A stretch of 63,757 nucleotides of DNA, the filler included. It is 7 parts of 7 records of this genome, joined end to end, with 100 filler letters (N's around TTAATTAATTAA, not from the genome) between each part and the next. Parts side by side here need not be neighbours in the genome. Positions count along the whole stretch, not along the records: positions 51,713 to 56,746 come from SRR31156797_58180; 6 more parts are not named here. One strand, 5' to 3'. Positions 1,919 to 56,846 of this stretch are shown piece by piece. The notes beneath the pieces are model-generated. The model was given only the letters and a program-made list of their open reading frames with translations. It was not told the origin of the DNA and did no database searches. A program made the translations under genes and the position numbers. Each line of letters starts with the position of its first letter. Within the stretch, counting starts at the first letter, position 1.

Positions 1919-1924
1919 TAGATT

Positions 1925-3812: not shown

Positions 3813-3912
3813 TAAAAAACAGTTGAAATTTCGTTCAAAATGTAACATAATACAAAGACAATTTCTTTTTAGGAAATTCTTACACTGGTAGGAATCCACA
3901 AGATAAAATATT

Positions 3913-4007: not shown

Positions 4008-4110
4008 TATTTTTGATATCCTAATTTGCTGCCGAATAATGGGATTATTAGAGGATAATGCTTTGAAGCAATAACTATCTTTGGTTTACTAATAATAATT
4101 TTATTATGAG

Positions 4111-4644
4111 GTGAATATGAACAAAAAATTTAATACGAGAGACTTGGTTATTGCAAGTTTGATGATTGCACTGGCTGTAGTATTTGCCAGACTGCTTTCT
4201 TTTAAGGTATCAGAGGGGCTGCGCATTAGCTTCGGACAGACACCAATAATTATTGCTGGATTGCTTTTAGGACCTGTATGGGGACTAATTGTTGGAATAC
4301 TAGCGGATGTTACAGGATACATTATCCAGCCATTGGGTGCATATCTGCCGGGATTGACTCTATGTTCTGGACTTGTTGGACTTATCCCGGGACTAATCAG
4401 AACAAAGTTTATAAAGACAAAGATAAATTTGGCAGTAATAGTATCTGCAGTAATAGTATGTCTGATTGTAAATGGTTTATTTGCGACGTTCTTTCTGTCC
4501 CTTGCTTATTCCAGCAGAGGGTTCATGGGCTGGCTGGCGGTAAGAATGCCAGTAGAAGTTGTAATGACTTTCGTACAGTCAATAGTAATAATAGCTATTA
4601 TGGCTGTCATTTCAAAGGTTTTACACGTAAAAGTAACTGAATAA
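4111..4644 (+). CDS. folT: Folate-family ECF transporter S component
   Basis: Highly hydrophobic; LMIALAVV...RISFG..PI..AG.LLGP..G...G..AD..G pattern; THF riboswitch upstream. Confidence 0.88.
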   Translation: MNMNKKFNTRDLVIASLMIALAVVFARLLSFKVSEGLRISFGQTPIIIAGLLLGPVWGLIVGILADVTGYIIQPLGAYLPGLTLCSGLVGLIPGLIRTKFIKTKINLAVIVSAVIVCLIVNGLFATFFLSLAYSSRGFMGWLAVRMPVEVVMTFVQSIVIIAIMAVISKVLHVKVTE

Positions 4645-4651
4645 TTTTTAG

Positions 4652-5815
4652 ATGAGGGACTGCAGTATGGAATTTAGTCTAATATCACCACAGAGTATAT
4701 ATTTTGGCAGCGACAAAATTCGCATACTGCCTGACCTTGCAAAAGATTATAAGGGCGATATTTTAATCGTTATATCAAATTCTGCCAGTAAGGTACAATC
4801 AGTTATAGAAATCTTAGCTCAGTTGGAGAGTACTCACAATGTACACTATTTCAAAGGAGTTATAGGCGAACCAACAGTAAAATGCATCAATGAATGTGTA
4901 GAGATTGCCAGATGTAACAATGTAGGATTGGTTATAAGCATTGGCGGCGGTTCAGTAATTGATACAGCAAAGGCCGTAGCAGGCTATTCACCAAACGATG
5001 GAGATTTGATTGATTATATTGAGGGAGTCGGCGAAGGCAGAGTACTTGCTAATGCTCCTATTGACCATATTGCTATACCTACTACGTCGGGCACAGGTTC
5101 TGAGATGACAAAGAATGCAGTTATAATGGGTGATGGTGATTTGATGTTCAAGCGCAGTTTTCGTCATGATAGGATGGTGCCTGTTGCTTCAATTGTTGAC
5201 CCAGAGCTTACGGTATCAGTTCCTCCTGATGTAACCGCATATTCAGGCATGGATGCCTTAACCCAGCTTATTGAATCCTATATCTCAAAGAAATCCAAGC
5301 CAGTAACTGATGCACTTGCATTAGAAGCAATATCTAGACTAGGTACATCACTAATTGATGCCTATGTCGACGGAAGCAATATAAAAGCTCGTACAAATCT
5401 TGCTTATGCCAGTATGATTAGCGGAATATGCTTAGCCAATTCAGGTTTGGGAGCAGTTCACGGTGTAGCAGCAGGAATGGGAGCAGTGTGTCATGCACCA
5501 CACGGTATGGTTTGCGCAATACTTCTAGCTCCAGTATTTAGGAAAAATGCCAAGCATATTTTACCTGAAAAAATTACAAAGCTATGCAAAGCATTAACAG
5601 GGAAAAGTACCAACAGATATGAATCAGATATAGAAGCAATTCTTAACCATATTGATAATCTAATGGAAAAGCTGAATATACCAAAGGATTTTAATTTCTT
5701 AAATATAACACAAGAAACTGCTCATAGCATTTTATCAAGTGTTTCAGGCTCATCCATGAGCGGTAATCCTTATGCTATGAATGATGAAGAAATTTTAGAA
5801 TTAATTAATTTATAA
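4652..5815 (+). CDS. Iron-containing alcohol dehydrogenase
   Basis: GGGSVIDTAKA, PTTSGTGSE, GMDALTQLIESY, GAVHG and PHG motifs. Confidence 0.92.
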   Translation: MRDCSMEFSLISPQSIYFGSDKIRILPDLAKDYKGDILIVISNSASKVQSVIEILAQLESTHNVHYFKGVIGEPTVKCINECVEIARCNNVGLVISIGGGSVIDTAKAVAGYSPNDGDLIDYIEGVGEGRVLANAPIDHIAIPTTSGTGSEMTKNAVIMGDGDLMFKRSFRHDRMVPVASIVDPELTVSVPPDVTAYSGMDALTQLIESYISKKSKPVTDALALEAISRLGTSLIDAYVDGSNIKARTNLAYASMISGICLANSGLGAVHGVAAGMGAVCHAPHGMVCAILLAPVFRKNAKHILPEKITKLCKALTGKSTNRYESDIEAILNHIDNLMEKLNIPKDFNFLNITQETAHSILSSVSGSSMSGNPYAMNDEEILELINL

Positions 5816-5902
5816 CAGTAAAAGTGTAAAAATACTTAAATAATATAAAGATACAAATATTTCTATTACAATATAATTATAATATGTTATAATCCCATCA
5901 GT

Positions 5903-7270
5903 ATGAGTAAAATTATAGTGAAAAAGAATGATAAATTCGTAAAGAGACTAGTAACACTGGGGCTGCCTCTTTTGCTGCAATATTTGGTAATATCCTCTCT
6001 CAATCTGGTTGACAATGTTATGATTGGGAATTTGGGGAAAATCAGCATAAATGCAGTTGCGGTTGGCAATCAGATCTTTTTTCTAGTTAATCTGTTTATA
6101 GTGGGCGTAACAAGCGGCACAGGGATATTCTTTTCCCAATACTGGGGTAAAAGAGATATAAAGAGCATTCATAAGACACTAGGAATCGCATTGATGGTTT
6201 CAATTATTGTAGCCTCTGTTTTTACAATCCTAGCTTTATCTGTTCCAGGGCAGATAGTAGGATTGTATTCAAAGGATGCTGGAGTAATTAATGAGGGTAT
6301 TATTTACTTAAGAGTTGCTGCATTTTCGTATATTCCATTTGCAATTTCAATGGCTATGGTTTTTGCTCTTAGGTCAATTGGTAATGTTAAGCTGCCATTA
6401 ATAGTTTCAATTATTGCTCTTGGAATAAATACATTTCTTAATTACTGCTTGATTTTCGGTAATTTTGGTATGCCGGAATTAGGGGTTAAGGGTGCAGCTA
6501 TTGCGACTGTTACTGCACGCCTTGTAGAGGCAACTTTGATTGTATCAATAGTATACTTAAAGAAATATCCAATAGCAGGTAAAATGCGGGACTTATTCAG
6601 TTTTTCATCTTTTTTCTTCAAAAAAATAATGAATAAAGTAGCATTGGTAATGCTGAATGAGGGCGTATGGGCAATTGGTACTACTGGCTATAGCATAATA
6701 TATGGTCGTATGGGTGTGGATGAACTGGCTGTTATGAGTATATGCATGGCAGTATTTAATATTGGTTTTGTTTTTGCAGAGGGGGTTGGTGTTGCTACAG
6801 GAGTACTGGTAGGCAATAGCCTTGGTGCAGGTGATTTTGAACAAGCAAAATCGGATGCGAAAAAGAGCCTGCCTGCTGCGTTTATCTGCGGCATGATTGT
6901 TTCATTAATTGTTCTGTCGCTGCGAAGTACTATACTATCTTTTTATAATGTTTCTCCGGAGGTGCTTCAGCAGGCTAGCATTGTACTGATAGCAATTATC
7001 GCTTTTCTGCCACTTAACGGAATTGCTTTTACATTGTTCATCGGAGTACTAAGAGCTGGAGGCGATACTAGATTCTGCGCTATAGTTGATATGGTAGCAG
7101 TATGGTGCATAGGGCTTCCATTAGCATGGCTGGGTGCATTTGTCTTTAAGTTTCCTGTCCTTATAGTATTTATATTGGCAAGGATGGAGTCAACGGGACA
7201 TGTTGTAATGTGTTTTATCAGATACAGGTCTCTAAAATGGGTAAATGATTTGACAATTACTATGGAATAG
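5903..7270 (+). CDS. MATE family efflux transporter
   Basis: About 12 TM helices; LVDNVMIG, GVKGAAIAT and GVLRAGGDT motifs. Confidence 0.92.
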   Translation: MSKIIVKKNDKFVKRLVTLGLPLLLQYLVISSLNLVDNVMIGNLGKISINAVAVGNQIFFLVNLFIVGVTSGTGIFFSQYWGKRDIKSIHKTLGIALMVSIIVASVFTILALSVPGQIVGLYSKDAGVINEGIIYLRVAAFSYIPFAISMAMVFALRSIGNVKLPLIVSIIALGINTFLNYCLIFGNFGMPELGVKGAAIATVTARLVEATLIVSIVYLKKYPIAGKMRDLFSFSSFFFKKIMNKVALVMLNEGVWAIGTTGYSIIYGRMGVDELAVMSICMAVFNIGFVFAEGVGVATGVLVGNSLGAGDFEQAKSDAKKSLPAAFICGMIVSLIVLSLRSTILSFYNVSPEVLQQASIVLIAIIAFLPLNGIAFTLFIGVLRAGGDTRFCAIVDMVAVWCIGLPLAWLGAFVFKFPVLIVFILARMESTGHVVMCFIRYRSLKWVNDLTITME

Positions 7271-7485
7271 TTAACTAAGATAGGTTTTATTTAGATTTAA
7301 CTTGATTTAAATACCTGTTTATCTTGAATTTATAGCTTATTAACATCTGTGTGATAAAATCTACACGTACTTTGGATAAAATGTGATAGAATGTATTACA
7401 GATATTGTCACTGAATTATTCTGATATAAATAGTATAATACAAGTAGAGCAGATACAGACAATCAGCTTAAGCGAAAGGTAACAT

Positions 7486-7917
7486 ATGAAGTTAAAAACT
7501 CATTTATATATAGCGGAAACATTGCATGAGGAGTATGAAGGATACATAAACAAGTTTATTTTCAAGGTTGGCAATATACTGCCTGATTTGTGGCTCCCCC
7601 TAAGGCTCCGCTCACATTATGAGGATGGTTCAGGAGAATTTGTTAACAACCTTGTTATGGATTTAATTAATTCACCAAAGGGTATTATAGGCAGGTCGAT
7701 GCAGTTAGGAATAGTGTCTCACTTTGTGACTGACTTCTCCTGTAAGGTACATAAGCCTGATTATTTGTGTGGTACTGTGGAGCATCATAAGTATGAGAAG
7801 ATGCTGTCAGAATCTCATGAAACCGGTCATCCTGATATAGAAGAAGCAATCAATAGAGCAGATACTATTATCTATAGGGTGATTGAAGAAACTGAACCAC
7901 TGGTTACTATGGCATAG
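7486..7917 (+). CDS. Zinc-dependent phospholipase C family protein (short)
   Basis: TH..IA, GNILPD, LG..SHF.TD...H and H..YE zinc-ligand pattern. Confidence 0.7.
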   Translation: MKLKTHLYIAETLHEEYEGYINKFIFKVGNILPDLWLPLRLRSHYEDGSGEFVNNLVMDLINSPKGIIGRSMQLGIVSHFVTDFSCKVHKPDYLCGTVEHHKYEKMLSESHETGHPDIEEAINRADTIIYRVIEETEPLVTMA

Positions 7918-8023
7918 AGTATAGCTCGCAGAATTAAAATTGAAATAAGTCTAATCTAAAAAATTGATATAACAGTACATAGTGGTACATTTTGACAGCT
8001 GTGTGCTGTCTTTTTTATATTTT

Positions 8024-9025
8024 TTATTCGTACATGCTAAAGAATTCCCAAATAATTTCGCTTGCTGATATATCCATATCGTCATATTTAATAGTTGGAT
8101 ACATATGGTACATATTATCAACTGTGATGTACCATACTTGAGTATTATTATTTGGATTGCTGTAAATTGTTTTTTCTACATGCTCAGTGGGAGACGTAGT
8201 TTCTTTTTGAGTACAGCCATTAATTCCAGCCCAGAATTCTATTCCATCCCTAGCAGATGGTCCGCCGCACCAAATCTTTTCGACTGCTTCATCTCTCCCT
8301 GTTCCATCGATGTGAATGAGTTCATCTAAAACACCATGAATATGGCAAATTGGAATGGGGGTATTTACTGGATGCTCCAGCCATGTATCGGCATTGTAAT
8401 TATATGGATTGTAGCTGTACCATGTATATTCACTCATAAGTGCAGAGACTGGAGCAACAGCACGGAATACATCAGGGCGCTCACACGCCAGAGTATAGCT
8501 CATATATCCGCCGTTGGAGAATCCTGTAGCAAATATTCGGCTTTTGTTGAGTGAATATGTATCAGCTATTGAAAGTGCCAAACTAGATAGAAAACCCACA
8601 TCATCTGTCAGTGAATATATAATTCTCGAATTCCAATGAGGCTGATTGTTATAAACATCATTTGTTCCCTGAGGATAGCATACTATGAATTTATGCTCAT
8701 CAGCTACATCATTCCAAGTAGAATACAGCATGAAATCCTTAGCATTTCCAGTGTAGCCATGCATAGCAATTACCAGCGATGCATTATCGGGTAAATCAGA
8801 TGGGATGTACAGGTAGTATATTCGCTCAATATTATTGTGGGTAAATGTTTTGTAAAGAATATTAGACTGTGTGCTGCTTAAATCATTGGCAGTATCTTCT
8901 AATATATCAGTTTCATCTAGCTGATTATTATTACCATGTTGAGAAAACAATGTAAAATATATAATAAAACATAATAAAATAGCAGAAATAACTGATGTAA
9001 TTATTATTCGAGAATGATTTTTCAT
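8024..9025 (-). CDS. Secreted PHB depolymerase/LpqC-type alpha/beta-hydrolase esterase
   Basis: N-terminal TM; MHGYTG, VCYPQG, DDVGF, GFSNGG nucleophile elbow, HG..D and catalytic His region. Confidence 0.85.
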   Translation of the reverse strand: MKNHSRIIITSVISAILLCFIIYFTLFSQHGNNNQLDETDILEDTANDLSSTQSNILYKTFTHNNIERIYYLYIPSDLPDNASLVIAMHGYTGNAKDFMLYSTWNDVADEHKFIVCYPQGTNDVYNNQPHWNSRIIYSLTDDVGFLSSLALSIADTYSLNKSRIFATGFSNGGYMSYTLACERPDVFRAVAPVSALMSEYTWYSYNPYNYNADTWLEHPVNTPIPICHIHGVLDELIHIDGTGRDEAVEKIWCGGPSARDGIEFWAGINGCTQKETTSPTEHVEKTIYSNPNNNTQVWYITVDNMYHMYPTIKYDDMDISASEIIWEFFSMYE

Positions 9026-9215
9026 ACAAAAATTATACTACTTATTAATTATTCTATCAATGCATTTATCCATTAATGAATCTTAAGAATAAAATTCAGC
9101 GAAAGGTAGCTTTTTTAATGTAATAGATATGCGATGCATGTTCTTGACATCATTTTAGTATAGGGTTATCATTATCGTGGATTATGGAGCTTTTATGAAA
9201 CAAAAGCGATGCTGC

Positions 9216-9315
9216 NNNNNNNNNNNNNNNNNNNNNNNNNNNNNNNNNNNNNNNNNNNNTTAATTAATTAANNNNNNNNNNNNNNNNNNNNNNNNNNNNN
9301 NNNNNNNNNNNNNNN
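9216..9315. other. Artificial contig spacer (N run with TTAATTAATTAA)
   Basis: 100-nt N block with all-frame stop linker; GC content jumps across it. Confidence 0.98.
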
Positions 9316-33144: not shown

Positions 33145-33244
33145 NNNNNNNNNNNNNNNNNNNNNNNNNNNNNNNNNNNNNNNNNNNNTTAATTAATTAA
33201 NNNNNNNNNNNNNNNNNNNNNNNNNNNNNNNNNNNNNNNNNNNN
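33145..33244. other. Artificial contig spacer
   Basis: N run with TTAATTAATTAA. Confidence 0.98.
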
Positions 33245-40073: not shown

Positions 40074-40173
40074 NNNNNNNNNNNNNNNNNNNNNNNNNNN
40101 NNNNNNNNNNNNNNNNNTTAATTAATTAANNNNNNNNNNNNNNNNNNNNNNNNNNNNNNNNNNNNNNNNNNNN
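40074..40173. other. Artificial contig spacer
   Basis: N run with TTAATTAATTAA. Confidence 0.98.
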
Positions 40174-40214
40174 CTGCTGCCAATAACGGGTTTTATTTCC
40201 AGAACCTGGTCCAC

Positions 40215-41423
40215 TTAACTGTCCAGTCTCCCCAGTATTGAAATCGCGCAAACGTTCTGCGCCGGGAAGCCGCCCAGGTTGTGGGTCAGTCCATAACGGG
40301 GATCTTCCAACTGTCTTTCATCAGCCCGGCCCAGTAGCTGCAGGTACATTTCATATATCATGCGCAGTCCCGAAGCCCCAATGGGATGGCCGAAACACTT
40401 GAGCCCGCCGTCTATCTGGGCCGGCACTTTTCCATCAGCGTTGTAGAAGCCGTCCAGGGCGTCCTTCCAGGCTTCGCCCTTCTCGGAAATGTGCAGGTCT
40501 TCATAAGTGACCAGTTCAGTAATGGAAAAGCAGTCATGCAGTTCCATCATGCTGATTTCCTCGCGCGGATTGGTGATGCCTGCTTCCTTGTAAGCCCTGG
40601 AAGAGCAGATATCCGTGGTCACGAAATGATCGCCGTCCCAATCGTTATAGGAAACTTCCTCGCCGCTGGAAAGGGCCAACTGAAGAGACTTGACCGTAAC
40701 CGGGTTCTTTACACCCATCTCCTTGGCCTTTTCCACCGTTGTGACTATAGCGCAGGCCGAACCGTCGCTGACGCCGCAGCAATCGAAAAGCCCTAAAGGA
40801 GAAGCAATAATCGGAGCGGCCATGACCTGGTCGATGGTTACCTTCTTGCGAAGATGAGCCTTGGGATTAATGACGCCGTTTTCATGGCTTTTTACCGACA
40901 CCTGGGCGATGGCCCGCTTCAGATCCTGGTCCGATACGCCGAATTTGGCCGCATAAGCTGAAGCCAGCTGGGCAAAAGATCCCGGTGCGGTCAGGTTGGG
41001 CCAGTAGAGCCATAGCAAGGAACCGGCCGCCGAACCGCCGCCAGGCAATCCGCCGTAACCAGTATCTTTGAGTTTTTCCACGCCCTGGGCCAGACAGATG
41101 TCATAGGCCCCGGAAGCTACGGCGTAAACCGCTCCCCTGAAGGCTTCCGTACCCGTGGCGCAATAGTTTTCAACACGCGTAACCGGAATGTAAGGCAGGC
41201 GCAAAGTCGTGGAAAGGGGCACAGCCGCCTTGCCCACATTGACTTCATCCATGCACGTTCCAAACCAGGCCGCTTCGATTTCCTTTTTCTCAATACCCGC
41301 ATCATCAAGGCATTCAGTAAAGGCTTCCACTATAAGCTCTTCAGCGCCCATGTCCCAGCGCTCTCCAAACTTGGAACACCCCATGCCTATGATCGCGACT
41401 TTATCTCTAATTCCTGTGGCCAT
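40215..41423 (-). CDS. Acetyl-CoA acetyltransferase, SCP2/archaeal-type thiolase
   Basis: ENYCATG, ELHDCF, GHPIGASG and HNLGG motifs. Confidence 0.92.
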   Translation of the reverse strand: MATGIRDKVAIIGMGCSKFGERWDMGAEELIVEAFTECLDDAGIEKKEIEAAWFGTCMDEVNVGKAAVPLSTTLRLPYIPVTRVENYCATGTEAFRGAVYAVASGAYDICLAQGVEKLKDTGYGGLPGGGSAAGSLLWLYWPNLTAPGSFAQLASAYAAKFGVSDQDLKRAIAQVSVKSHENGVINPKAHLRKKVTIDQVMAAPIIASPLGLFDCCGVSDGSACAIVTTVEKAKEMGVKNPVTVKSLQLALSSGEEVSYNDWDGDHFVTTDICSSRAYKEAGITNPREEISMMELHDCFSITELVTYEDLHISEKGEAWKDALDGFYNADGKVPAQIDGGLKCFGHPIGASGLRMIYEMYLQLLGRADERQLEDPRYGLTHNLGGFPAQNVCAISILGRLDS

Positions 41424-41482
41424 TTCTTTTCCTCCTCGACTCCGGAACGCCTCTGACAGCGTCCCGGAACGATTTTTGACCT

Positions 41483-44215
41483 TTAAATTTTAAATAACTT
41501 TTCAATAAGCTGGGATTTCATTACATCTCCGCCGATCTTCAGCTGTCCGCCTGTGAAGAGCGCCATAGCATTAGCCTCGCCGGTGATCATCTTGATGAAA
41601 TCGTCGTCGCCCATTGTAATCGTAGTCGTAGGACTTGAGTGTTTGCCTTCACATACTTCCAGTTTACCGTCTTTTATGACTTCATACCACGACCCGCCTC
41701 CGGGACCGGAAATGTCAAACTGGAAGACCACGTCCACGCCGGCCGCCGCATCCGCCTGGAAGGCTTCCGGCATGCGGTCGAATATGTCCTTAACGGTCAA
41801 TCCGCCGCCGCCCGAATCACCGGCATCAGCTTTTTTGGGGCTGAAAGCCTCGATCATGGGGGTGAACGCCGCGGTCGCATTGGGTATTTCAATCGCGTCG
41901 GTAAGGTCCTGGATGCCGTCCCAGTTCTGATGAATCTGTTCCAGCGTCGGGGCGCTCGCTCCGTCGCCGACAACAATTCCCTTGCCGGTCAAAACAGCCG
42001 ACCTGTTGACGTAACCCATGCCGGTATTAAAGATCAAGCCGTTATCCGTGCAACGATCCGATCCCATGTACAGGACCAGAGGGGCCACGAAATCAGGATT
42101 CAACTTGGCGAACAGGTCCGGAGGCAGAACATCCTCGGTCAACCTTGTAGCCGCTATCGGGGCCACGGTGTTGATCTTGATGTTATACTTGTCGCCTTCC
42201 TGCTTCAGAGTATTCATGAATCCGACCAGGCCCATTTTGGCTGCCGAATAATTTGTCTGACCAAAGTTGCCGTACAGTCCGGCTGCGGATGTGGTCATAA
42301 TAATGCGGCCGTAGCCCGCTTCGCGCATCTTGACGAACGCGGGACGGGTTACGTTGTACGCGCCCTTGAGGTGCACGTCCATGATAACATCCCAGTTTTC
42401 CGGCTCCATCTTGACAAAGGTCTTGTCGCGCAAAATGCCGGCGTTGTTGACCACTACGTCCACGCGCCCGAATGCATTAATGGCCGTGTCTACAATGTTC
42501 TGACCGCCTTCGGCCGTGGCTACCGAATCGTAATTCGGCACGGCTTCGCCGCCCAGGGCCTTGATCTCTTCCACGACCTTGTCGGCTGCCGCACTGTCGC
42601 CGCCGACGCCGTCCCGGGATCCGCCCAGATCGTTAACCACAACCTTGGCGCCCCGTTTGGCGAATTCAAGCGCGTAATTCCTGCCTAAACCCGCGCCGGC
42701 GCCCGTTACAATCACGACCTGGTCGTCAAAACGGATTTCGTCGCCGGCCTTTTTCGCGGCTTTTTCAACTTTCTGAGGTATGGCTTTCCAGAAATAGCCG
42801 CTGAACCCGCGATCTTCGTCCGTGTAACGCTTGCGGTAGGCCATCTCGACAGGAGCGCCCACAGCCACGTCAGACAATTCGCAATCAGTGAAGTCAGCCA
42901 TGAAGCGTCCGCCGTCGTCAAACTGCACCATGCCGTAAACATGAGGCGGATCAACGGACACGGCCAGCATGTCGCCGGTAAAAGTCTTGACTTTAGCAGG
43001 CAGGTTTGCGAATTCATACGGATCCTGAGAGTCAACCTTGCCGCAGTCCGGATTCACGCAGATTCTCTGTCTCGGTATCTGGGCCGTACCGCATTCGCGG
43101 CACTTGCCGCCTACCAGGCCGGTCAAAAGGTCCCTCTTCCGATATAGGACCGTCATGGCCGTCTGGGTCGGCGCTTCCGCCCTGATGCCCATTTCCGGAT
43201 CGATCAGATCGCGGAATTTTAAGAATTTAAAGTAGTTGTCAGTGGTTTTCTTATTGGCGAGAGAACCGTTGACGCCCTTTCTCGGCGCCAGGTTCTTTAT
43301 TTCATCCGTAACCTTGAAATAAAGCGCATCCGAACCCTGACCAAAACCAGCCACCAGAATGCGGTCGCCCGGCTCGGATTCTTCCAGGGCCTTGACCAGC
43401 ATTAACAAGGCATGGGCCGTGCCGGTTTCGCCGCAGACTTCATGCAGGTTGTCCTGCAGTTTTTCAGGCGCAGCGCCGAGCAACTTGGCTATTTTCTTAT
43501 GTTCAGCCTTGAAAAAGCACGGGAACACAAACTTGTCCACATCGTCCATGGTTATGCCGATTTTATTGAACAAGCCGTTAACCGCTTCGGGAATTATGGT
43601 CGAATAACCCAGGTCGCGAACCCAGCGTTCTTCCCACATGTAATCGAACTTCTTGTTCGATCCTCTGAAGTGATCCACAAAATCCCTGGTCACGGAATAC
43701 GATCCCAGAAATTCGGCGATTACGTTTTCACTGCCCACGGACAGAGAAGCGGCGCCGTCTCCAAACCACATTTCATAAAAATAGGCCGGTTTGGTCAGGC
43801 GCTTGTCCGCGGCCGTAACCAGAACTTCCTTTTTATCCCCGCTCTTGACCGCGGACATGGCCTGGGCCAGCGCGGAAGTCCCCGCCTTCAGAGTCGAAGT
43901 AAAGTCCGCCGCATAAAGGTCGTCCTTTAAATTCAAGGCGGTTTTCAGAACGCCGGCGTTAAGCCGGTCTGAAAACGGCAAGGTCGTCGAACTTAAATAT
44001 ACAGCGTCAATATTGGATTTATCTTTTCCTTTGAGGCAGTCCATGGATGCGGACACGGCCATGGTCAGGCTGTCTTCGTCCCAGTTGCAAAAGGAACGTT
44101 CGCCCTGGGCCACGGCAATAATAGCCGGTGCAAACCAGCCCATGCCCTGAAAAATGCTCATGCGGTTAAGCCTGAGTCTGGGTATATAACCGCCGTAGGA
44201 TGTGATGCCTATCAT
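41483..44215 (-). CDS. Four-domain fusion: HMG-CoA-synthase/KASIII-like + DUF35 (Zn ribbon/OB fold) + MFE2-type SDR + SCP2
   Basis: GITSYGGYIPR.R/DEDSLTMA/GDGAA; CRECG...CVNPDC; VTGAGAGLGR/NNAG/NYSAAK; C-terminal SCP2 (FQFDI.G..GG.W...GQLKIGGD). Confidence 0.85.
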   Translation of the reverse strand: MIGITSYGGYIPRLRLNRMSIFQGMGWFAPAIIAVAQGERSFCNWDEDSLTMAVSASMDCLKGKDKSNIDAVYLSSTTLPFSDRLNAGVLKTALNLKDDLYAADFTSTLKAGTSALAQAMSAVKSGDKKEVLVTAADKRLTKPAYFYEMWFGDGAASLSVGSENVIAEFLGSYSVTRDFVDHFRGSNKKFDYMWEERWVRDLGYSTIIPEAVNGLFNKIGITMDDVDKFVFPCFFKAEHKKIAKLLGAAPEKLQDNLHEVCGETGTAHALLMLVKALEESEPGDRILVAGFGQGSDALYFKVTDEIKNLAPRKGVNGSLANKKTTDNYFKFLKFRDLIDPEMGIRAEAPTQTAMTVLYRKRDLLTGLVGGKCRECGTAQIPRQRICVNPDCGKVDSQDPYEFANLPAKVKTFTGDMLAVSVDPPHVYGMVQFDDGGRFMADFTDCELSDVAVGAPVEMAYRKRYTDEDRGFSGYFWKAIPQKVEKAAKKAGDEIRFDDQVVIVTGAGAGLGRNYALEFAKRGAKVVVNDLGGSRDGVGGDSAAADKVVEEIKALGGEAVPNYDSVATAEGGQNIVDTAINAFGRVDVVVNNAGILRDKTFVKMEPENWDVIMDVHLKGAYNVTRPAFVKMREAGYGRIIMTTSAAGLYGNFGQTNYSAAKMGLVGFMNTLKQEGDKYNIKINTVAPIAATRLTEDVLPPDLFAKLNPDFVAPLVLYMGSDRCTDNGLIFNTGMGYVNRSAVLTGKGIVVGDGASAPTLEQIHQNWDGIQDLTDAIEIPNATAAFTPMIEAFSPKKADAGDSGGGGLTVKDIFDRMPEAFQADAAAGVDVVFQFDISGPGGGSWYEVIKDGKLEVCEGKHSSPTTTITMGDDDFIKMITGEANAMALFTGGQLKIGGDVMKSQLIEKLFKI

Positions 44216-44237
44216 GAGAATATCCTCCTATCGCGGA

Positions 44238-46154
44238 TTAAATCTTGAACAGTTTTTCAATGAGCTGCGATTTCATTACATCTCCGCCAATTTTCAGCTT
44301 TCCGCTGGTGTACGCGCTCATGGCGTTCATTTCACCGCTGAACATCTTGATGAAGTCGTCATCGCTCATTGTAAGGGTAGTTGTAGGGCTGTCATGCGAA
44401 CCTTCTTTAACTTCGCAAGCGCCGTCCTTGATAGCAATATTCCAGGATCCGCCTTTGGGGCCGTTGATGTCATACTGGAATACTACATCGACTCCGGCGG
44501 CTGCGTCCGCCTGGAACGCGCCTTTCATGTTGTCAAACACGCTCTGGACGGTCAATCCGCCCCCGCCGGCCGGGGCCTCTTTTTTGGGATTAAAAGCGTC
44601 CAGCATCGGACCCAAGGCTGCCGTGAGGTTGGGATATTCCTCGCCGCCTTCAAGCGACTTGATCGAATCCATGGCCGCGGCAACATCTTCCGGCGTGGGA
44701 ACTTCACCCGGCGCTCCAGCGATGGCCCCTGGACCGGTGACGATAGCCGCGCGGTTGTAATAGCCCATGCCCGCGTTGTACGCCATACCCGTGACCGGGC
44801 ACTGTTCCGAACACAGGTACAGCACCAGGGGTGAAATAAATTCCGGTTTCAGTTTTTCAAACATTTCAGGAGGCAGAATATCCTCGGTCAAACGCGTGGC
44901 CGCCACCGGCGCAATTGTGTTGACCTTGATGTTGTGTTTCTGCCCTTCTATCTTCATGGTATTCATAAGGCCCAAAAGGCCCATTTTGGCTGCTGAATAA
45001 TTGGTCTGCCCGAAGTTGCCGTACATGCCGGCCGCGGACGTAGTCATGACAATCCGTCCGTAACCGTTTTCACGCATTTTTACGAAAGCGGGGCGGGATA
45101 CGTTGTAAGCGCCTTTTAGATGTACGTCCATTACGGCGTCCCAGTTTTCCGGCTCCATCTTTATAATGGTCTTGTCGCGCAGAATACCCGCGTTATTGAT
45201 GACTATGTCAACCCGGCCGAAATTGTTTACCGCCGTGTCAACAATGGCCTGGCCGCCTTCGGGAGTAGCCACGGAATCGTAGTTGGCCACGGCTTCGCCG
45301 CCGGCCGCCTTGATTTCGTCCACGACCTTGTCCGCGGCTGATGTGCCGCCGCCGGTGCCGTCTCTGGCGCCGCCCAGGTCATTGACCACAACCTTGGCGC
45401 CCCGCGCCGCCAGATCGAGAGCATAACTGCGGCCCAGTCCGGCGCCCGCGCCCGTGACAATGGCCACCTGTCCGTCAAAGTTGATGGCGCCGAGTTTGGC
45501 TTTGCGCTCAAGTTCTTCCTTGGAAAGCCATTCCACAATGCCCTTGTCCAAAACCAAGTCTTCATTTTCAGCATTAACGGTCTTGAATATGGCTTTACCG
45601 TCTTCTAACTTCCAGATCAGGGTTTTAATTCCCTTGCCCGGATAAAGAGTGCGGGAAAAGCGAACCCTGAACCTTGAAATGCGTTCCGGTTCTCCCGGGA
45701 ACAGGTGTTTCATGACCGCGCGGCAGGCATATCCGTGGGTGCACAATCCGTGCATGATCGGCATTTCAAATCCGCTGGCCTTGGCAAAATCCGGGTCAAC
45801 GTGCAAGGCGAAATAATCCCCGGAAAGCCGGTACAACAAAGGCTGATCCCCGGTCGGAGAGTCTTCTTCCACGAAATCAGGCTCGCGATCCGGAAATTCA
45901 ACCGTCTCGGCCGGACCTGCCTCGCCGCCAAAGCCCCCGTCCAACCGGCAGAACAGCTTTATGTAATTTGTAAACAACTTCTGACCGTTGGAATGATAGG
46001 TTTCGGCCTCGGCAGCCACAATGGCCCCCTTGTCCTTGCCCTTGTCATAAATGTCCGTAACAGTCAGCTCACTGGTCAGAGTTCCTTCAGTAGGAATGGG
46101 ATTGTGAAAGATGGTATCCTGCTCGCCGTGAAGAATGCCGGCCAGATTGGCATT
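44238..46154 (-). CDS. MaoC-type (R)-enoyl-CoA hydratase 2 + MFE2-type SDR + SCP2 fusion (5' truncated by contig end)
   Basis: ILHGEQ, YRLSGDYFALHVDP and IMHGLCT hydratase-2 motifs; VTGAGAGLGR, NYSAAK; SCP2 tail; frame stays open to the contig edge. Confidence 0.87.
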   Translation of the reverse strand, partial: NANLAGILHGEQDTIFHNPIPTEGTLTSELTVTDIYDKGKDKGAIVAAEAETYHSNGQKLFTNYIKLFCRLDGGFGGEAGPAETVEFPDREPDFVEEDSPTGDQPLLYRLSGDYFALHVDPDFAKASGFEMPIMHGLCTHGYACRAVMKHLFPGEPERISRFRVRFSRTLYPGKGIKTLIWKLEDGKAIFKTVNAENEDLVLDKGIVEWLSKEELERKAKLGAINFDGQVAIVTGAGAGLGRSYALDLAARGAKVVVNDLGGARDGTGGGTSAADKVVDEIKAAGGEAVANYDSVATPEGGQAIVDTAVNNFGRVDIVINNAGILRDKTIIKMEPENWDAVMDVHLKGAYNVSRPAFVKMRENGYGRIVMTTSAAGMYGNFGQTNYSAAKMGLLGLMNTMKIEGQKHNIKVNTIAPVAATRLTEDILPPEMFEKLKPEFISPLVLYLCSEQCPVTGMAYNAGMGYYNRAAIVTGPGAIAGAPGEVPTPEDVAAAMDSIKSLEGGEEYPNLTAALGPMLDAFNPKKEAPAGGGGLTVQSVFDNMKGAFQADAAAGVDVVFQYDINGPKGGSWNIAIKDGACEVKEGSHDSPTTTLTMSDDDFIKMFSGEMNAMSAYTSGKLKIGGDVMKSQLIEKLFKI

Positions 46155-46254
46155 NNNNNNNNNNNNNNNNNNNNNNNNNNNNNNNNNNNNNNNNNNNNTT
46201 AATTAATTAANNNNNNNNNNNNNNNNNNNNNNNNNNNNNNNNNNNNNNNNNNNN
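46155..46254. other. Artificial contig spacer
   Basis: N run with TTAATTAATTAA. Confidence 0.98.
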
Positions 46255-51612: not shown

Positions 51613-51712
51613 NNNNNNNNNNNNNNNNNNNNNNNNNNNNNNNNNNNNNNNNNNNNTTAATTAATTAANNNNNNNNNNNNNNNNNNNNNNNNNNNNNNNN
51701 NNNNNNNNNNNN
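51613..51712. other. Artificial contig spacer
   Basis: N run with TTAATTAATTAA. Confidence 0.98.
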
Positions 51713-51831: not shown

Positions 51832-51847
51832 TGGCACCGGAATTGCT
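51832..51847 (+). promoter_or_regulatory. Sigma-54 (-24/-12) promoter of the methylamine operon
   Basis: TGGCAC-CGGAA-TTGCT is an exact match to TGGCAC-N5-TTGCW, oriented toward the operon. Confidence 0.85.
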
Positions 51848-51899
51848 AATTGCTGTTTCGCATTACCATTTCTGTTGCGATGAATACGACATGCGACCG

Positions 51900-52060
51900 T
51901 AGGGTTCGCGCAAGAATAAATACGTAGATTGTCAGCGTTCAGGCGCCTGCTCGGCAAGGCGTGAAAACAAGGGAATACAGGTGTATCCCGTGTTTTCGTA
52001 ACGCAGCTGAGCGGGATGAATCGACGCTGAAAATATGAAATTAATTTTGCGCGAGCCCTA
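51900..52060. mobile_element. 161-nt palindromic MITE/ERIC-like element in the operon leader
   Basis: Terminal IR TAGGGTTCGCGCAAGA / TTTTGCGCGAGCCCTA plus nested stems TCAGCGT/ACGCTGA, CCTGCTCGGC/GCTGAGCGGG, GAAAACA/TGTTTTC and GGGA.TACA/TGTATCCC. Confidence 0.65.
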
Positions 52061-52095
52061 AGTACTGAGAAGAAATAAAAATCAGGAGAAAAACG

Positions 52096-53112
52096 ATGAT
52101 GACCCCCAAAGAAAGAGTGATGGCAGTTTTCCAACATGAAAGTCCAGACCGTATTCCCTGCTTCGGGGCCAACTCCACGGTCAACTATGCCCAAATGGAA
52201 TCGGTTCAGGCTTTCTGGCCCGAAGGCCATGAAAAGGGGGACGTGATGTTCAAACAGGCCCTCGCATCTCATACGGTAGTGGGCTTCGATGCGGTCCGGG
52301 TTCCCTTTTGTCAGACGATGGAGGCTGAAGCCCTGGGTTGCAAAATTAAACCCGGAAAAGGTGTGGACGGCCTTCAAGGGATCCCCGGCATCGACCACCC
52401 GCCTCCATACAAACTGGATGACGACATTGAATTTCCGGGCGACTTTCTCGAAAGAGGCCGTATTCCCGAATTGCTCAAGGCCGTGCGCATGCTCAAGGAG
52501 GAACTCGGCGACGATGTGCCCATCGTGAGCGGGATCATCGGCCCATTCACCATTGCAGGATCCATGCTCGATTCTGTGCCCATACTCAAAGCGTCCTTGA
52601 AGAATCCGGAAAGCCTCCGCCCCTTTCTCGATGTCGCGGAAAAAGCAGGGACCACCCTTGCCAAGGCGCTCATCGAAGCCGGGGCGGATATCATCTCTTG
52701 CGAGGATATGACCGCTTCCCCCCTGATGATTGCCCCCAAAACCTACCGTGACTATGAGTTGGAGTACCAGAAGCGACAGTTTGACGCCATCGACGCGCCC
52801 AAAATCCTGCATATCTGCGGCGATGTGTCCAAAATCATCGAATGGATGGGAGAGACCGGTGCGGATGCCATCAGCCTGGAGCCGAAAACGAACCCGAAAC
52901 TGGCCAGGGAAAAATGCGGACCGGACACGATTCTCATGGGTGGTGTGGACACGGCCACGACATTGTTCATGGGATCCGTAGCTGACGTAAAAAAAGCATG
53001 TGAAGAATCCATCGCCAACGGGATCCAGATTCTCGCTCCGGGATGTGCGGTGGGACCGGGAACCCCCATGGAAAATCTGCTGGCCATGGTCGAAGTGGCT
53101 AAAAACCATTAA
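52096..53112 (+). CDS. MtaA/MtbA/CmuA-family methylcobamide:thiol methyltransferase (URO-D fold)
   Basis: PFC.T.EAEALG, GPFT.A and Zn ligands LHICG...APGC. Confidence 0.88.
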   Translation: MMTPKERVMAVFQHESPDRIPCFGANSTVNYAQMESVQAFWPEGHEKGDVMFKQALASHTVVGFDAVRVPFCQTMEAEALGCKIKPGKGVDGLQGIPGIDHPPPYKLDDDIEFPGDFLERGRIPELLKAVRMLKEELGDDVPIVSGIIGPFTIAGSMLDSVPILKASLKNPESLRPFLDVAEKAGTTLAKALIEAGADIISCEDMTASPLMIAPKTYRDYELEYQKRQFDAIDAPKILHICGDVSKIIEWMGETGADAISLEPKTNPKLAREKCGPDTILMGGVDTATTLFMGSVADVKKACEESIANGIQILAPGCAVGPGTPMENLLAMVEVAKNH

Positions 53113-53121
53113 AGGATCGTC

Positions 53122-54819
53122 ATGAGCAGATTCGGAATTGCGATCGACCTGGGTACATCCGGATTCCGGGCCCAAGCAATGGATCTCGACCGAGACACCG
53201 TTCTCGCAACGGCCGTCACGGCCCGGCATCCTCTGCCCGGTGCCAATGTGATGGACCACCTCCATTTTGCCATCGAGGCCGGAACCCAAACCGCTCACGA
53301 AGTCGTTATCCAGGCGGTCAACCGTCTCATCAAAGAGCTGGGCGTACCGGTAGACCAAATCGTCCGGCTGGCCGTTTGCGGCAACCCCATTCAGGTCTCC
53401 CTTTTTCAGGAGATCGAAATCCGAGACCTGGCCTATGCCGGTGAACGTAAGCGAAAAGCTCTGGGTATCGTCGAACCCGAAAGGAACGCCGCCATCATTC
53501 CCGCCGGAGAAATTCGCGGTCTTTTGCTTCCGGAGGATGCGGAAGTACTGATCCCGCCGGCGGTCCGGCACGAAATCGGCGCTGATGCCCTGGCCATGAT
53601 GATCAAGACCGATATCCTCCAAAAGGAAGAGCCCACCATTGTCACGGACTACGGCACCAATGCCGAAATGGCCCTGGTGGTGAACGGCACGGTCTACACC
53701 GGCTCAACAGCCGCCGGCCCTGCACTGGAAGGCCAGCAGATCTCCAACGGGATGCTGGCACTGCCCGGTGCCATCAGCGATGTAACGTTCAACGGCAATA
53801 AGCTTCAGACACAGGTGTTGGGCGAAAACATGGCCCCCCTGGAAGGCGCCGTGGTCGACCCGCAAAACGGCCGGATTTTCCGACGGGGAGGGGCGGCAAA
53901 AGGAATCACCGGGACCGGCGTTATCGCTCTGATTGCCGAAGCGATGCGAACGGACATAATCCACCTACCCAAAATCCATTGTGCGGACAACGCCTTTCAT
54001 CTTCCGGACGGCCTGGTATTTACGGAAAAGGATCTTACCGAAGCCGGTAAAGCCATCGGCGCCATTCGCGCCGGGCACATTTCCCTTTGCAAAGCCGCCG
54101 GTATCAAAATGGAAGAGATCTGTGCAGCCTACATGGCCGGCGCCTCAGGCACCTACGTGGACGCCGTCAAGGCACGGGATATCGGTCTGGTTCCCGCACT
54201 GGCGGATAAGGTCTACCAGGTGGGCAATACCTCGCTGGCCATGGCCTGCGACATGGTGAAAGAACCGGACGAACTCTGGCGTCTCGAGGCACTGTCCGAA
54301 GAGCTGCGACAGCACCACTGCATGTTCGCCACTTCGGATGCATTCGAAAAGGCCTACATTCTGGAGCTCTCCTACTGGACTGAAGGAATGCCCATGGATC
54401 AATTCCGTGTGTTTCTGCGTCAGTTCCATCTCCCGGACCTTCCGCAACCCGAAACACTGCCCGAAGTAATACGAACTTCGGCCCAGGATATCGCCGAATG
54501 GGGTGTGCGGGGGCTTTCTATCATCGACACTGTGGATGAGAAAAAAAACGCGCTGTTTGCCGGGTGCACAGCCTGCCAAGCATGCGTTGAGGAATGTCCG
54601 GAGACGGCGCTTCGCATCAAAAACACGCAGGAAAATCCACAATTCTCCCTGGATCTTTCACGATGCAACGGGCTGGCCTGTCTTCGTTGCGAGCAAGTCT
54701 GCCCGGAAAACGTATTCGACTACAAAAAAATCGTTTTACAGGGTTCTTCAACGGACACTGTGATGGTGCCGCCGCAACGGTGCGACGGCAACGTAAGCAA
54801 CTCACTTGAAAGGAGGTGA
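53122..54819 (+). CDS. ramA: Methylamine corrinoid protein reductive activase (RamA-type ASKHA ATPase, C-terminal 2x[4Fe-4S])
   Basis: DLGTSGFRAQ, RHPLPGANVMDHL, HEIGADALA, TDYGTNAEMAL, AAGPALEG; CTACQACVEECP and CNGLACLRCEQVCP. Confidence 0.9.
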   Translation: MSRFGIAIDLGTSGFRAQAMDLDRDTVLATAVTARHPLPGANVMDHLHFAIEAGTQTAHEVVIQAVNRLIKELGVPVDQIVRLAVCGNPIQVSLFQEIEIRDLAYAGERKRKALGIVEPERNAAIIPAGEIRGLLLPEDAEVLIPPAVRHEIGADALAMMIKTDILQKEEPTIVTDYGTNAEMALVVNGTVYTGSTAAGPALEGQQISNGMLALPGAISDVTFNGNKLQTQVLGENMAPLEGAVVDPQNGRIFRRGGAAKGITGTGVIALIAEAMRTDIIHLPKIHCADNAFHLPDGLVFTEKDLTEAGKAIGAIRAGHISLCKAAGIKMEEICAAYMAGASGTYVDAVKARDIGLVPALADKVYQVGNTSLAMACDMVKEPDELWRLEALSEELRQHHCMFATSDAFEKAYILELSYWTEGMPMDQFRVFLRQFHLPDLPQPETLPEVIRTSAQDIAEWGVRGLSIIDTVDEKKNALFAGCTACQACVEECPETALRIKNTQENPQFSLDLSRCNGLACLRCEQVCPENVFDYKKIVLQGSSTDTVMVPPQRCDGNVSNSLERR

Positions 54820-54823
54820 ATGG

Positions 54824-55468
54824 ATGGATAAATCAGAATGGTTTGAAAAAGCCGTGGAGAGCATCATGGCCGCGGATGAGGAAACCGCCGTGCAAGTGGC
54901 TCAAGACGCCCTCGCCGAGGGTATTGATCCGCTTGAAATGATCAACAGTGGTTTTTCCGAGGGCATTCGGAAGCTGGGCGACCTCTTCGATACAGGGCAG
55001 GTTTTTTTGCCCACCCTGATCATCGCATCCGAGGCCATGGTCAAAGCCGTGAAGATTCTGGAGGAAGCGCTTCCCCAGTCAGAACAGCCCAAGTCCATGG
55101 GAAAGGTCGTTATTGGAACCATTGAAGGCGATGTCCACGACATCGGCAAGGGCATTGTCGTTACAATGCTTAAGGTTTACGGATTCGAAGTTCACGATCT
55201 GGGAAGAGATGTGCCTGTGCAGGAATTCGTCGACAAGGTCATCGAAATCGACGCTGATTTTGTGGGCTCATCCGCCCTGATGACGACCACCCAAGCGGGG
55301 CAAAAGAAACTTGAAGAGGCCCTCGTTGAGGCTGGTATTCGTGACAAGGTAAAAACGATGGTCGGTGGCGCCGTGGCTACGCAAAGTTGGGCCGATAAAA
55401 TCGGTGCAGATATTTATGCGGAGACCGCAAGTGATGCCGTCATGAAACTCAAAGAAATGGTAAGTTGA
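54824..55468 (+). CDS. mtbC: Methylamine-specific corrinoid protein
   Basis: Cap domain plus GDVHDIGK B12 motif, SALMTTT, MVGGA; directly upstream of mtbB. Confidence 0.85.
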
Positions 55469-55482
55469 GAGGAAATGATGCA

Positions 55483-56746
55483 ATGACCAAGTATTTAACA
55501 CGACGCGGTGACGGCGCATTGATCGAAATGACGGCGGACGAACTCCGTTCGGAAATCGACGCAGGGACTGCCGATGCCGCTGAAATCGGAAAGATACCGG
55601 CACTGTCGGAAGACGATATATCCATGCTGATGGACATCTTCATGGATAAAAACCGTTTCGTCAGTGTCGAACCGGGCAATGAAGTGCCTTTGAGCCACGA
55701 CATCGGTCCATTGCGGCTCATGGGGGATCAGGGGAACAGCGGGGTCGGCATACCGCTGTCCCGGCTCCACGGAATCCAGGTGCACGAACGGGCCTTTTGT
55801 TCGGACACCATGGAACTGGGTCACATCGACTACAGTTTCAAGCCGGTCAAACCGGTGATCGCCATGGAAACCCAGGAGATGGAAAACGCCCTTCTCGCTA
55901 CGGTCCTGCCCTTGTACTACGGCGCCATGCCCAATCTGGGGACCTACTATAAGCCCGACGGACCCTTCGGGAACCCGTCGGACCTTCTCCCAATGGGAAA
56001 GGTGAAGGAAGCCTGGGAAGCGCAGGAAGAGGCTGTGACGCACGCCACACGGGACATGGTCTACATCTGCGAGGCCATGGATCAAGTGGGAGCGGACGGC
56101 ATCAACTTCGACACGACCGGTGCTGCCGGAGACACGGACTTTCTGGCAACACTCAACACAGTTGAGAAGATTAAACAAACGACCAATCTCAGCGTGGAAG
56201 TCGGCATGGCCGGTGAATTCGTTCTGGGCATGCACGGCAACCTGACCTACGATGGACAGCGTCTCGCTGGGCTGTTCTGCCATGACCAGGTCAAATTGGT
56301 AGAGAAGGCCGGGGCCGATATTTTCGGGCCGGTGGTCAACACCAAGCCAGGCAAGTCCATGCCCTGGAACCTGGCCCGGGCGGTGACCTTCGTCAAGGCC
56401 TGCGTTGAGGCTTCAACCATACCGTGTCACGTAAACATGGGAATGGGTGTCGGCGGAACGCCGGTATTCGAGACCCCGCCCATCGATTCGGTATCGAGAG
56501 CTTCGAAGGCCATGGTGGAAATCGCGAAAGTTGACGGGTTGTAGATCGGCGTGGGAGACCCCATGGGAATGCCGATCGCACACAGCGTGGCAGCGGGTAT
56601 TGGTGGAATAAGGACCGCCGGAGATCTGGTGGCCCGCATGCAAATGAACCGCAAGATGCGGATTGCAGAAGCCAAAGCCTATGTCGCAGAAAAGCTGGGT
56701 GTCACACCGGCCGACCTGTCCAATGTACATGTCATGCGCGAGGTCC
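55483..56746 (+). CDS. mtbB: Dimethylamine:corrinoid methyltransferase with pyrrolysine at TAG 56542-56544 (codon 354); 3' truncated
   Basis: MtbB motifs [40 protein letters not shown]; frame continues through TAG as [18 protein letters not shown]...[11 protein letters not shown]. Confidence 0.95.
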
Positions 56747-56846
56747 NNNNNNNNNNNNNNNNNNNNNNNNNNNNNNNNNNNNNNNNNNNNTTAATTAATT
56801 AANNNNNNNNNNNNNNNNNNNNNNNNNNNNNNNNNNNNNNNNNNNN
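56747..56846. other. Artificial contig spacer
   Basis: N run with TTAATTAATTAA. Confidence 0.98.

Follow-up and report, generated by a model that had tools for sequence, protein, structure and literature searches.

A Desulfobacterales-type, pyrrolysine-dependent dimethylamine methyltransferase operon headed by an MtaA-like zinc enzyme, with a thiol as candidate methyl acceptor

Results

Gene content of the module

We analysed a 63.7-kb window (63,757 nucleotides, filler included), in which seven separate contigs are chained end to end with six N linkers between them. The sixth contig (positions 51713-56746; 5,034 bp; G+C content 0.55) wholly contains a module of four genes, encoding an MtaA-like zinc methyltransferase (here MT2), the corrinoid-protein activase RamA, the corrinoid protein MtbC and the dimethylamine methyltransferase MtbB (Table 1). 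A first-pass annotation, made from the letters of this region alone, had described an exact sigma-54 promoter ahead of four tightly packed genes. Both observations hold, the element lying at 51832-51846 and the genes being separated by gaps of only 9, 4 and 14 nt, while the contig borders, the in-frame TAG with its PYLIS element and the truncation of mtbB had been missed. We assign the region, with a probability of roughly 0.9, to the middle of a pyrrolysine-dependent dimethylamine methyltransferase operon of Desulfobacterales type that is preceded by a sigma-54 promoter.

Table 1. Positions of the features discussed, counted along the whole window.
Feature	Position	Strand	Evidence
Sigma-54 type -24/-12 element TGGCAC-N5-TTGC	51832..51846	+	exact consensus, 250 nt 5' of first gene
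Long imperfect hairpin in 5' leader	51900..52060	+	part of 51858-52098 fold, -93 kcal/mol, z -8.1
MT2, MtaA/CmuA-family zinc methyltransferase, URO-D fold, 338 aa	52096..53112	+	Pfam URO-D, 229.7 bits
ramA, ATP-dependent reductive activase of corrinoid proteins, C-terminal 2x[4Fe-4S]	53122..54819	+	TIGR04270, 776.2 bits (cut-off 500)
mtbC, corrinoid protein (B12-binding_2 + B12-binding)	54824..55468	+	TIGR02370, 251.5 bits (cut-off 215.3)
mtbB, dimethylamine:corrinoid methyltransferase, cut by contig end	55483..56746	+	TIGR02368, 494.5 bits (cut-off 369)
PYLIS_2 (Rfam RF02509), begins at TAG	56542..56641	+	83.1 bits (gathering 36), E 8e-20
Contig joint, left edge of module contig	51613..51712	.	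N44-TTAATTAATTAA-N44 linker
Contig joint, right edge of module contig	56747..56846	.	N linker
N44-TTAATTAATTAA-N44 linkers	9216-9315, 33145-33244, 40074-40173, 46155-46254, 51613-51712, 56747-56846		

MT2 is predicted to take the methyl group from the methylated corrinoid protein. In an alignment with M. mazei MtaA (4AY7, E 5e-67), its residues H239, C241 and C317 fall on the zinc ligands, confirming the URO-D fold with intact H-x-C...C ligands proposed earlier, and all 49 bacterial and all 11 methanogen sequences share this invariant triad. An AlphaFold2 model of the protein (pLDDT 93) matched MtaA (4AY8) in Foldseek with a TM score of 0.94, MetE being a weaker match. The name MtbA, which the first-pass annotation had given to this gene, nevertheless had to be abandoned: MT2 scored 244.6 bits with the MtbA equivalog NF041608 (cut-off 600; methanogen MtbA controls 628-666) and 302.1 bits with the MtaA equivalog NF040654 (cut-off 400; eight methanogen controls 429-534), and all eleven methanogen proteins exceeded the cut-offs of their own models. 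It passed the MtaA/CmuA family model TIGR01463 (271.4 bits, cut-off 235.4) and the subfamily model PRK06252 (312.7 bits, cut-off 244).

RamA combines RACo middle and ASKHA domains with two ferredoxin-type motifs, C482-x2-C-x2-C-x3-C492 and C515-x4-C-x2-C-x3-C527. These eight cysteines bear out the two C-terminal [4Fe-4S] clusters read earlier from the sequence. MtbC carries the motif DVHDIG (DxHxxG) at residue 109 and reached 238.4 bits with the equivalog NF041607 (cut-off 350). Its probable start is the ATG at 54824, with AAGGAGG upstream, the listed open reading frame (ORF) beginning at a TTG at 54806. Likewise, mtbB probably starts at the ATG at 55483, the TTG of its listed ORF lying at 55465.

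The mtbB score in Table 1 (TIGR02368 / PF09505) comes from the part ahead of an in-frame TAG codon at 56542-56544, residue 360 of the listed ORF, which is predicted to be read as pyrrolysine. Beyond it the frame continues as positions 357-422 of the Dimeth_Pyl model, so that the gene ends at about position 422 of 463 and about 40 last residues are lost to the contig end. The same PYLIS_2 match was present in the related locus L011. Among relatives, PylS was found in all six genomes in which mtbB stands beside an MT2 of the window type and in none of the four methanol-only genomes, and locus L153 holds a pylSn-D-C-B-Sc cluster.

Distribution of the module and likeness to known systems

We then compared the module with 49 related loci. 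The order MT2-RamA-MtbC-MtbB recurs in four of them (L011, L098, L105 and L106), and a full mtbB lies close to a window-type MT2 in 10. The module is real and fairly common, with copies in numerous publicly available genomes of Desulfobacterota. An MttC-MttB pair stands 5' of the module in L105 and L106, where the genes downstream encode DUF2284, a MoxR-type ATPase, a VWA protein and a LuxR-type regulator/kinase pair. Most of the other loci carry the same MT2 subfamily with MtaC, CobW, MtaB and RamA, a widespread methanol system. As side observations, conserved companions across L097-L107 and other loci include a 197-aa protein after RamA (21 loci), CobW (23 loci) and DUF2284 (9 loci), as well as the MoxR-type ATPase and VWA protein after mtbB; two of the companion clusters bear the labels 'unk197' and 'unk97'.

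These Desulfobacterota methanol clusters (MtaA-like, MtaC, CobW, enhancer-binding protein, MtaB, RamA) share the MT2 subfamily and RamA with the window, and their MT2 proteins are the nearest to that of the window (82% identity in L137, 76-77% in L091). They also have strict sigma-54 promoters and enhancer-binding proteins, but differ in that MtaB and MtaC replace MtbB and MtbC and that pyrrolysine is not needed. The MtbB1-MtbC, MtbA and RamA proteins of Methanosarcina belong to the same four families as the module, and the likeness extends to the pyrrolysine TAG and PYLIS, which occupy corresponding positions in MtbB, the corrinoid DxHxxG motif, the C-terminal 2x[4Fe-4S] of RamA and the zinc URO-D MT2. 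Unlike the Methanosarcina system, the module has a bacterial-type host, a sigma-54 promoter and all four genes in one operon; its MT2 falls below the MtbA and MtaA equivalog cut-offs, its proteins form separate bacterial clades, and the relatives that are positive for coenzyme M (CoM) synthesis genes lack McrA (absent from all five ComF-bearing genomes tested).

Host and origin

For MtbB, identity amounts to 79% with a record titled Ca. Desulfobacula maris and to 76-78% with other Desulfobacterales loci. The archaeal records listed share 51-64% identity with it, and a Desulfosporosinus and a Clostridiales record 55-56%. A search with MT2 yielded 1,123 relatives with E values of 1e-30 or lower; identity to it is 69-82% among the top 120, of which all named ones are bacterial, while the methanogen MtaA and MtbA proteins are 30-38% identical. 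A scan of species genomes with MT2 gave 48 loci, nearly all from Desulfobacterota and including the isolate Desulfospira joergensenii. The bacterial, Desulfobacterota-like host suspected at the outset is thus borne out.

In a quick IQ-TREE analysis of 60 rows, the window MT2 fell within a bacterial clade of 41 rows (SH-aLRT 99), apart from the methanogen MtaA (99) and MtbA (100) clades. In a FastTree analysis of MtbB, which kept 39 of 87 rows (two thirds of those from L016-L090, nearly all archaeal, were dropped and L042 was kept), the window protein fell within a clade of seven Desulfobacterales rows (99) beside an almost wholly archaeal clade of 26 rows and a second bacterial clade of six. 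A transfer between domains had been put forward in the first-pass annotation; with MT2 and MtbB each in bacterial clades of their own beside the archaeal ones, we see no sign of a recent one, and an old transfer may have occurred. The accompanying argument that C-terminal ferredoxin clusters mark an archaeal layout fails, because RamA-type activases are common in the Desulfobacterota loci (27 of 49; RACo with an N-terminal 2Fe-2S domain in 6).

Could the module simply be an ordinary archaeal mtb cluster on a mis-binned methanogen fragment? The window is indeed a mixed set of contigs, and the locus L042, titled Tissierellaceae, has an MtbB that nests in Methanomethylovorans, a similar case of mis-binning. 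We nonetheless consider this explanation hardly credible, given the identities and the bacterial placement of both proteins described above, the presence of a sigma-54 promoter, and the tetranucleotide profile of the contig, which correlates at r 0.84-0.85 with Desulfobacterales loci versus 0.54 with a Methanosarcina locus. More generally, L042, L116, L128 and L132 are short contigs titled Tissierellaceae, Woesearchaeota or Dehalococcoidales whose proteins nest in Methanomethylovorans or Desulfobacterota clades, and they are likely binning errors in public metagenome-assembled genomes (MAGs).

Contig 2 of the window is Pseudodesulfovibrio-like: it matches the complete genome G001 at 97-98% identity, and the PBP2 that it encodes shares 76-85% identity with Pseudodesulfovibrio records. 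When G001 was compared with the other contigs, the module contig, contig 7 and contig 1 gave no match and contig 5 only a weak 64% stretch, and no mtbB, MtaA-like gene or pylS was found in G001. This leaves two options for the module contig, a strain-specific island or, with greater likelihood, a Desulfobacterales contig binned with the organism of contig 2. The tetranucleotide profile fits both options, since it correlates at r 0.86 with contig 2 and about as well with the Desulfobacterales loci.

Proposed pathway and second methyltransferases

From the functions of the families, MtbB, with pyrrolysine read at the in-frame TAG, would transfer a methyl group from dimethylamine to Co(I)-MtbC, RamA would bring oxidised Co(II)-MtbC back to Co(I)-MtbC with the help of ATP and of its Fe-S clusters, and the MtaA-like zinc enzyme would remove the methyl group from methyl-Co(III)-MtbC. 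The identity of the operon and these predicted steps, up to methyl removal, are secure at the family level. The zinc enzyme would then pass the methyl group to a thiol activated by zinc (CoM in hosts able to synthesise it), and a second corrinoid system would move it on to tetrahydrofolate (THF) and into Wood-Ljungdahl oxidation. This second system, encoded near such operons in relatives, would comprise an MtaA-like paralog, a corrinoid protein, an MtrH-like pterin methyltransferase and RACo. We propose this last part, a thiol followed by THF through the MtrH-like system, tentatively and at slightly less than even odds. A thiol is favoured because the zinc triad is invariant, the fold of MT2 is that of MtaA, pterin-type methyltransferases are tied to MttB operons, and CoM genes occur in relatives. 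The thiol acceptor suggested in the first-pass annotation has been strengthened as a candidate by the CoM biosynthesis genes of some relatives.

The question of the acceptor is a real one, as the second methyltransferase is called uncharacterised in the available text of Kivenson et al. 2021 (PMC8318568). That text describes marine Deltaproteobacteria related to Desulfobacula with pyrrolysine machinery, trimethylamine and dimethylamine methyltransferases with in-frame pyrrolysine, RamA and corrinoid proteins; it proposes a Wood-Ljungdahl fate for the methyl group, gives MtbA as absent from its genomes and names a MetH-family (pterin) protein as the candidate second methyltransferase. In contrast to those genomes, an MtaA-like gene heads the window operon, and relatives of the window have both kinds of second methyltransferase, each tied to a different module. 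Indeed, G002, G004 and G008 hold an operon of an MttB-family gene, a corrinoid protein gene and a PRK07535 pterin methyltransferase gene (333-356 bits, cut-off 259), which adjoins pyl genes in G004 and G008 and has sigma-54 activators in G004 and G002. A PRK07535-type gene lies within 10 kb of a zinc MT2 in only one of the 49 loci. As we also observed, the operons of this kind in L153, L154 and L155 lie beside pylSn-pylD-pylC-pylB-pylSc and sigma-54 activators; their MttB-family ORF is uninterrupted in L153 and L155 and split in L154, as expected for a TAG codon.

The MtgABC system of Desulfitobacterium, the MtqA systems of Eubacterium and the MtaABC system of acetogens follow the same logic of entry methyltransferase, corrinoid protein, exit methyltransferase and ATP-dependent activase, but the exit enzyme of these THF systems is a pterin-binding protein and not a zinc URO-D enzyme. 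For Moorella, a 2026 study (PMC13391211), in its accessible part, describes the acetogen MT2 as a 29.7-kDa protein and a URO-D homolog as repressed on methanol.

Zinc-thiol chemistry is also shared by MetE, and the acceptor could be homocysteine or sulfide, yielding methionine or methanethiol and giving the module a biosynthetic or sink function instead of one in an energy pathway. The available text of the mlp preprint does propose methionine or selenium salvage for other MtaA-like clusters. We regard this as very unlikely here, as the make-up of the operon is that of a catabolic methylamine system, beside transporters and regulators, and a dead-end product would presumably yield a sulfate reducer no reducing power.

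Coenzyme M genes in relatives

The genome G004, titled Desulfospira joergensenii DSM 10085 and the source of locus L103, carries a CoM-synthesis cluster on a 2.4-Mb scaffold (L156, G004:C2:215000-233000). This cluster encodes cysteate synthase (363 bits, cut-off 325), ComF ('methanogenesis marker 16', MMP16; 511 bits, cut-off 364), an aminotransferase and a fused ComDE (223.5 versus 221.5 and 192 versus 148 bits), and is predicted to be a complete type-2 methanogen CoM pathway. Directly beside it lie genes for a corrinoid protein, an MtrH-like protein (165 bits), an MtaA-like paralog (234 bits), a second corrinoid protein and RACo. In G034 and G053, too, ComF has ComDE beside it, either alone or together with cysteate synthase.

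In a family sample of 121 Desulfobacteraceae genomes, ComF exceeded its cut-off in eight and MtaA-like proteins (PRK06252, E 1e-55 or better) occurred in 20; all eight ComF genomes were among these 20 (Fisher p 1.4e-7, uncorrected for phylogeny). A band of MtaA-like paralogs scoring 222-235 bits, present in seven of the eight, was associated with ComF still more tightly (p 4e-9). Two other markers were set aside: ComA was uninformative, being absent from both methanogen controls, and ComE was not counted as a sole marker, since it serves sulfonate breakdown too and lies among acyl-CoA genes in G008.

The closest relative of the window mtbB, G002, has ComF, which adjoins a regulator/kinase pair whose two members share 60-65% and 54-56% identity with those flanking methyltransferase clusters. 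In this genome the MtrH-like/MtaA-like/corrinoid/RACo cassette shares a 35.6-kb contig with the dimethylamine operon. Elsewhere, the cassette lies within 10 kb of a window-type MT2 in L121, L131 and L135, and partly so in L117, L096, L097 and L136.

As a side observation, an HdrD-like CCG/4Fe-4S protein gene flanks ComF in G002, G053 and G125 and lies 1-6 kb from it in G090 and G022. The proteins of these five genomes (L158, L159, L161, L164 and L165) are 74-84% identical among themselves, and in G002 the gene is preceded by genes for a multihaem cytochrome c and a cytochrome b. The HdrD-like protein may act at the membrane as a thiol/disulfide reductase with a link to CoM.

These genes allow a more specific proposal, which we consider unlikely as a whole: some Desulfobacteraceae would use archaeal type-2 CoM (cysteate synthase, aminotransferase, ComDE, ComF/MMP16) as a methyl shuttle, with zinc MtaA-like enzymes making methyl-CoM from dimethylamine, trimethylamine or methanol and a soluble MtaA-like/corrinoid/MtrH-like/RACo system passing the methyl group to THF. 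Such organisms would include the cultured D. joergensenii and the closest relative of the window mtbB. Our literature search found nothing on a described acceptor or on CoM synthesis in Desulfobacterota, within a coverage that left out most subscription journals. Chadwick 2025 (PMC12068725) identified the last enzyme of the type-2 CoM pathway; in the accessible text of that paper, bacterial CoM appears only as the Xanthobacter route in alkene metabolism.

Weighing the methyl acceptor

Several observations weigh against a thiol followed by the MtrH-like system. At six alignment columns the bacterial clade and the methanogen CoM methylases have different fixed residues (N26/T, G44/A, D65/E, L188/Y, G283/N and A318/G), and because of these class-specific substitutions the pocket of MT2 may differ from that of the methanogen enzymes. 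Two of them are beside zinc ligands, G283 ending a strand and A318 following directly on the ligand C317. ComF exceeds its cut-off in only two of 16 genomes with the exact MT2 subfamily of the window (ComE in three of 16), and in the single-contig genomes G003 and G006 none of ComA, ComE and ComF exceeds its cut-off, so that the MT2 orthologs there cannot use self-made CoM. The co-occurrence statistics given above take no account of phylogeny, genome size or MAG incompleteness. The MtrH-like cassette is missing from six of 17 genomes with window-type MT2, and it may serve another substrate, because its architecture is that of an ordinary O-demethylase. Finally, THF is assumed as the acceptor in sulfate reducers in reviews, as far as their available text goes (PMC8048578).

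Some of these points would suit direct methylation of THF by the MtaA-like enzyme, its zinc site being structural or repurposed. The hosts are complete oxidisers of the Wood-Ljungdahl type, which need methyl-THF; the accessible parts of two reviews have MtaA acting on THF in acetogens and sulfate reducers (PMC8048578, PMC5770442); most genomes with the window MT2 subfamily are without CoM synthesis genes; the MtaA-like gene is the sole MT2-type gene within 10 kb in most loci; and the changes beside the zinc ligands could mean a new substrate. However, no URO-D-type enzyme is reported to methylate THF in the portions of the literature covered, the mlp preprint, in its accessible text, assigns MtaA-like proteins no role outside methanogens, and the acetogen MT2 is the different 29.7-kDa protein mentioned above (PMC13391211, available part). 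The same genomes also retain pterin-type and MtrH-type methyltransferases for THF, and the zinc triad is invariant. On balance, we judge direct THF methylation to be somewhat unlikely.

In another arrangement, MT2 would be an entry enzyme like MtsA, loading the same corrinoid protein from methylated sulfur compounds, and a pterin- or MtrH-type methyltransferase encoded elsewhere would carry the methyl group from MtbC to THF. Enzymes that could do so are widespread, since 11 of 17 genomes with the MT2 subfamily (and seven of the eight ComF genomes) have MtrH-like genes, and all genomes tested have pterin-type methyltransferases; URO-D methyltransferases are, in the sources available, substrate-side in O-demethylases and in CmuA. 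The gene order speaks otherwise: MT2 heads a tight operon with RamA, MtbC and MtbB, and elsewhere it travels with MtaC-MtaB, which already includes an entry enzyme. Its closest characterised relatives are, moreover, exit enzymes. This arrangement is in our view quite unlikely, and transfer to a thiol is retained as our tentative reading of the last step.

Promoter and leader

The sigma-54 consensus TGGCAC-N5-TTGC has a single match in the window, where 0.16 were expected and 14 of 100 shuffles had at least one. One-mismatch versions occur in the two nearest relatives, 144 nt upstream in L137 and about 280 nt upstream in L091. When the strict motif TGGCA[CT]-N5-TTGC was scanned in the 49 related loci, it occurred 35 times versus about 3 expected by arithmetic assuming equal base frequencies; 12 of the 35 lie within 170 nt ahead of mtaB and six lie 30-730 nt ahead of MT2. 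Within 500 nt upstream of MT2 it was found in one of 45 relatives' loci. The excess of the motif in related loci, together with the one-mismatch versions in the nearest relatives, makes the promoter probably real. Sigma-54 control, as first supposed, is plausible, with genes for enhancer-binding proteins in 24 of the 49 loci and strict promoters ahead of mtaB in 12; no such gene lies on the 5-kb module contig. Counting against it, the loci with the same four-gene order have no such promoter and encode a different type of regulator, LuxR-type regulator/kinase pairs.

The 250-nt leader holds the long imperfect hairpin of Table 1, which is not conserved in the nearest relative, L137, and of which no further copy was found in the window or the fetched loci. 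No riboswitch or other known RNA was detected in the leader, with no Rfam family at E up to 1.

Other contigs of the window

As the parts of the window are separate contigs, gene neighbourhoods spanning the linkers are artefacts, and with N linkers at both of its edges the module is physically unlinked to its neighbours in the window. The bin looks mixed, because contig 7 (56847-63757) has no match to G001 and carries a PSCyt2/PSD1 (DUF1549/DUF1553) and DUF1501 pair, a pairing that we take to be typical of Planctomycetota-like genomes, as well as a gene for a NosD-like protein. Contig 1 (1-9215) probably derives from another organism; its G+C content is 0.36 against 0.52-0.56 elsewhere, its tetranucleotide profile is foreign (r 0.10-0.33), and it encodes an AadA-like nucleotidyltransferase, a PGA_cap protein, an Fe-alcohol dehydrogenase and a MatE pump.

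At the start of contig 2 (9316-9400), the first 68-87 bases match at least 38 places in G001 with 77-96% identity, often paired about 400 bp apart, and constitute a dispersed short repeat family. Contig 4 (40174-46154) holds genes for a thiolase-like protein and for two short-chain dehydrogenases fused to SCP2, one of which also has a MaoC hydratase domain, a set that looks like side-chain beta-oxidation of a bulky lipid. A tRNA search of the window found none.

Discussion

In sulfate-rich sediments, methanogens are regarded as having methylamines and methanol to themselves, as 'non-competitive' substrates. Operons of the type described here indicate that relatives of sulfate reducers carry the full methanogen-style uptake machinery, including pyrrolysine. 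The question of the methyl acceptor can be tested at the bench, because a cultured strain, D. joergensenii, carries all the parts; it is listed among the marine sulfate reducers growing on methanol and named as a gram-negative sulfate reducer with mtaB.

Either answer would be new. If the acceptor is THF, MT2 would be the first zinc URO-D enzyme known for THF methylation. If a thiol such as CoM is the exit, the biology of CoM in bacteria would be widened beyond alkene metabolism, the context given in the available text of PMC12068725, and methylotrophy and sulfate reduction would be joined by a new link. A CoM shuttle, if true, would do in the bacterial cytoplasm what the Mtr step does in methanogens, supplying sulfate respiration rather than methane formation.

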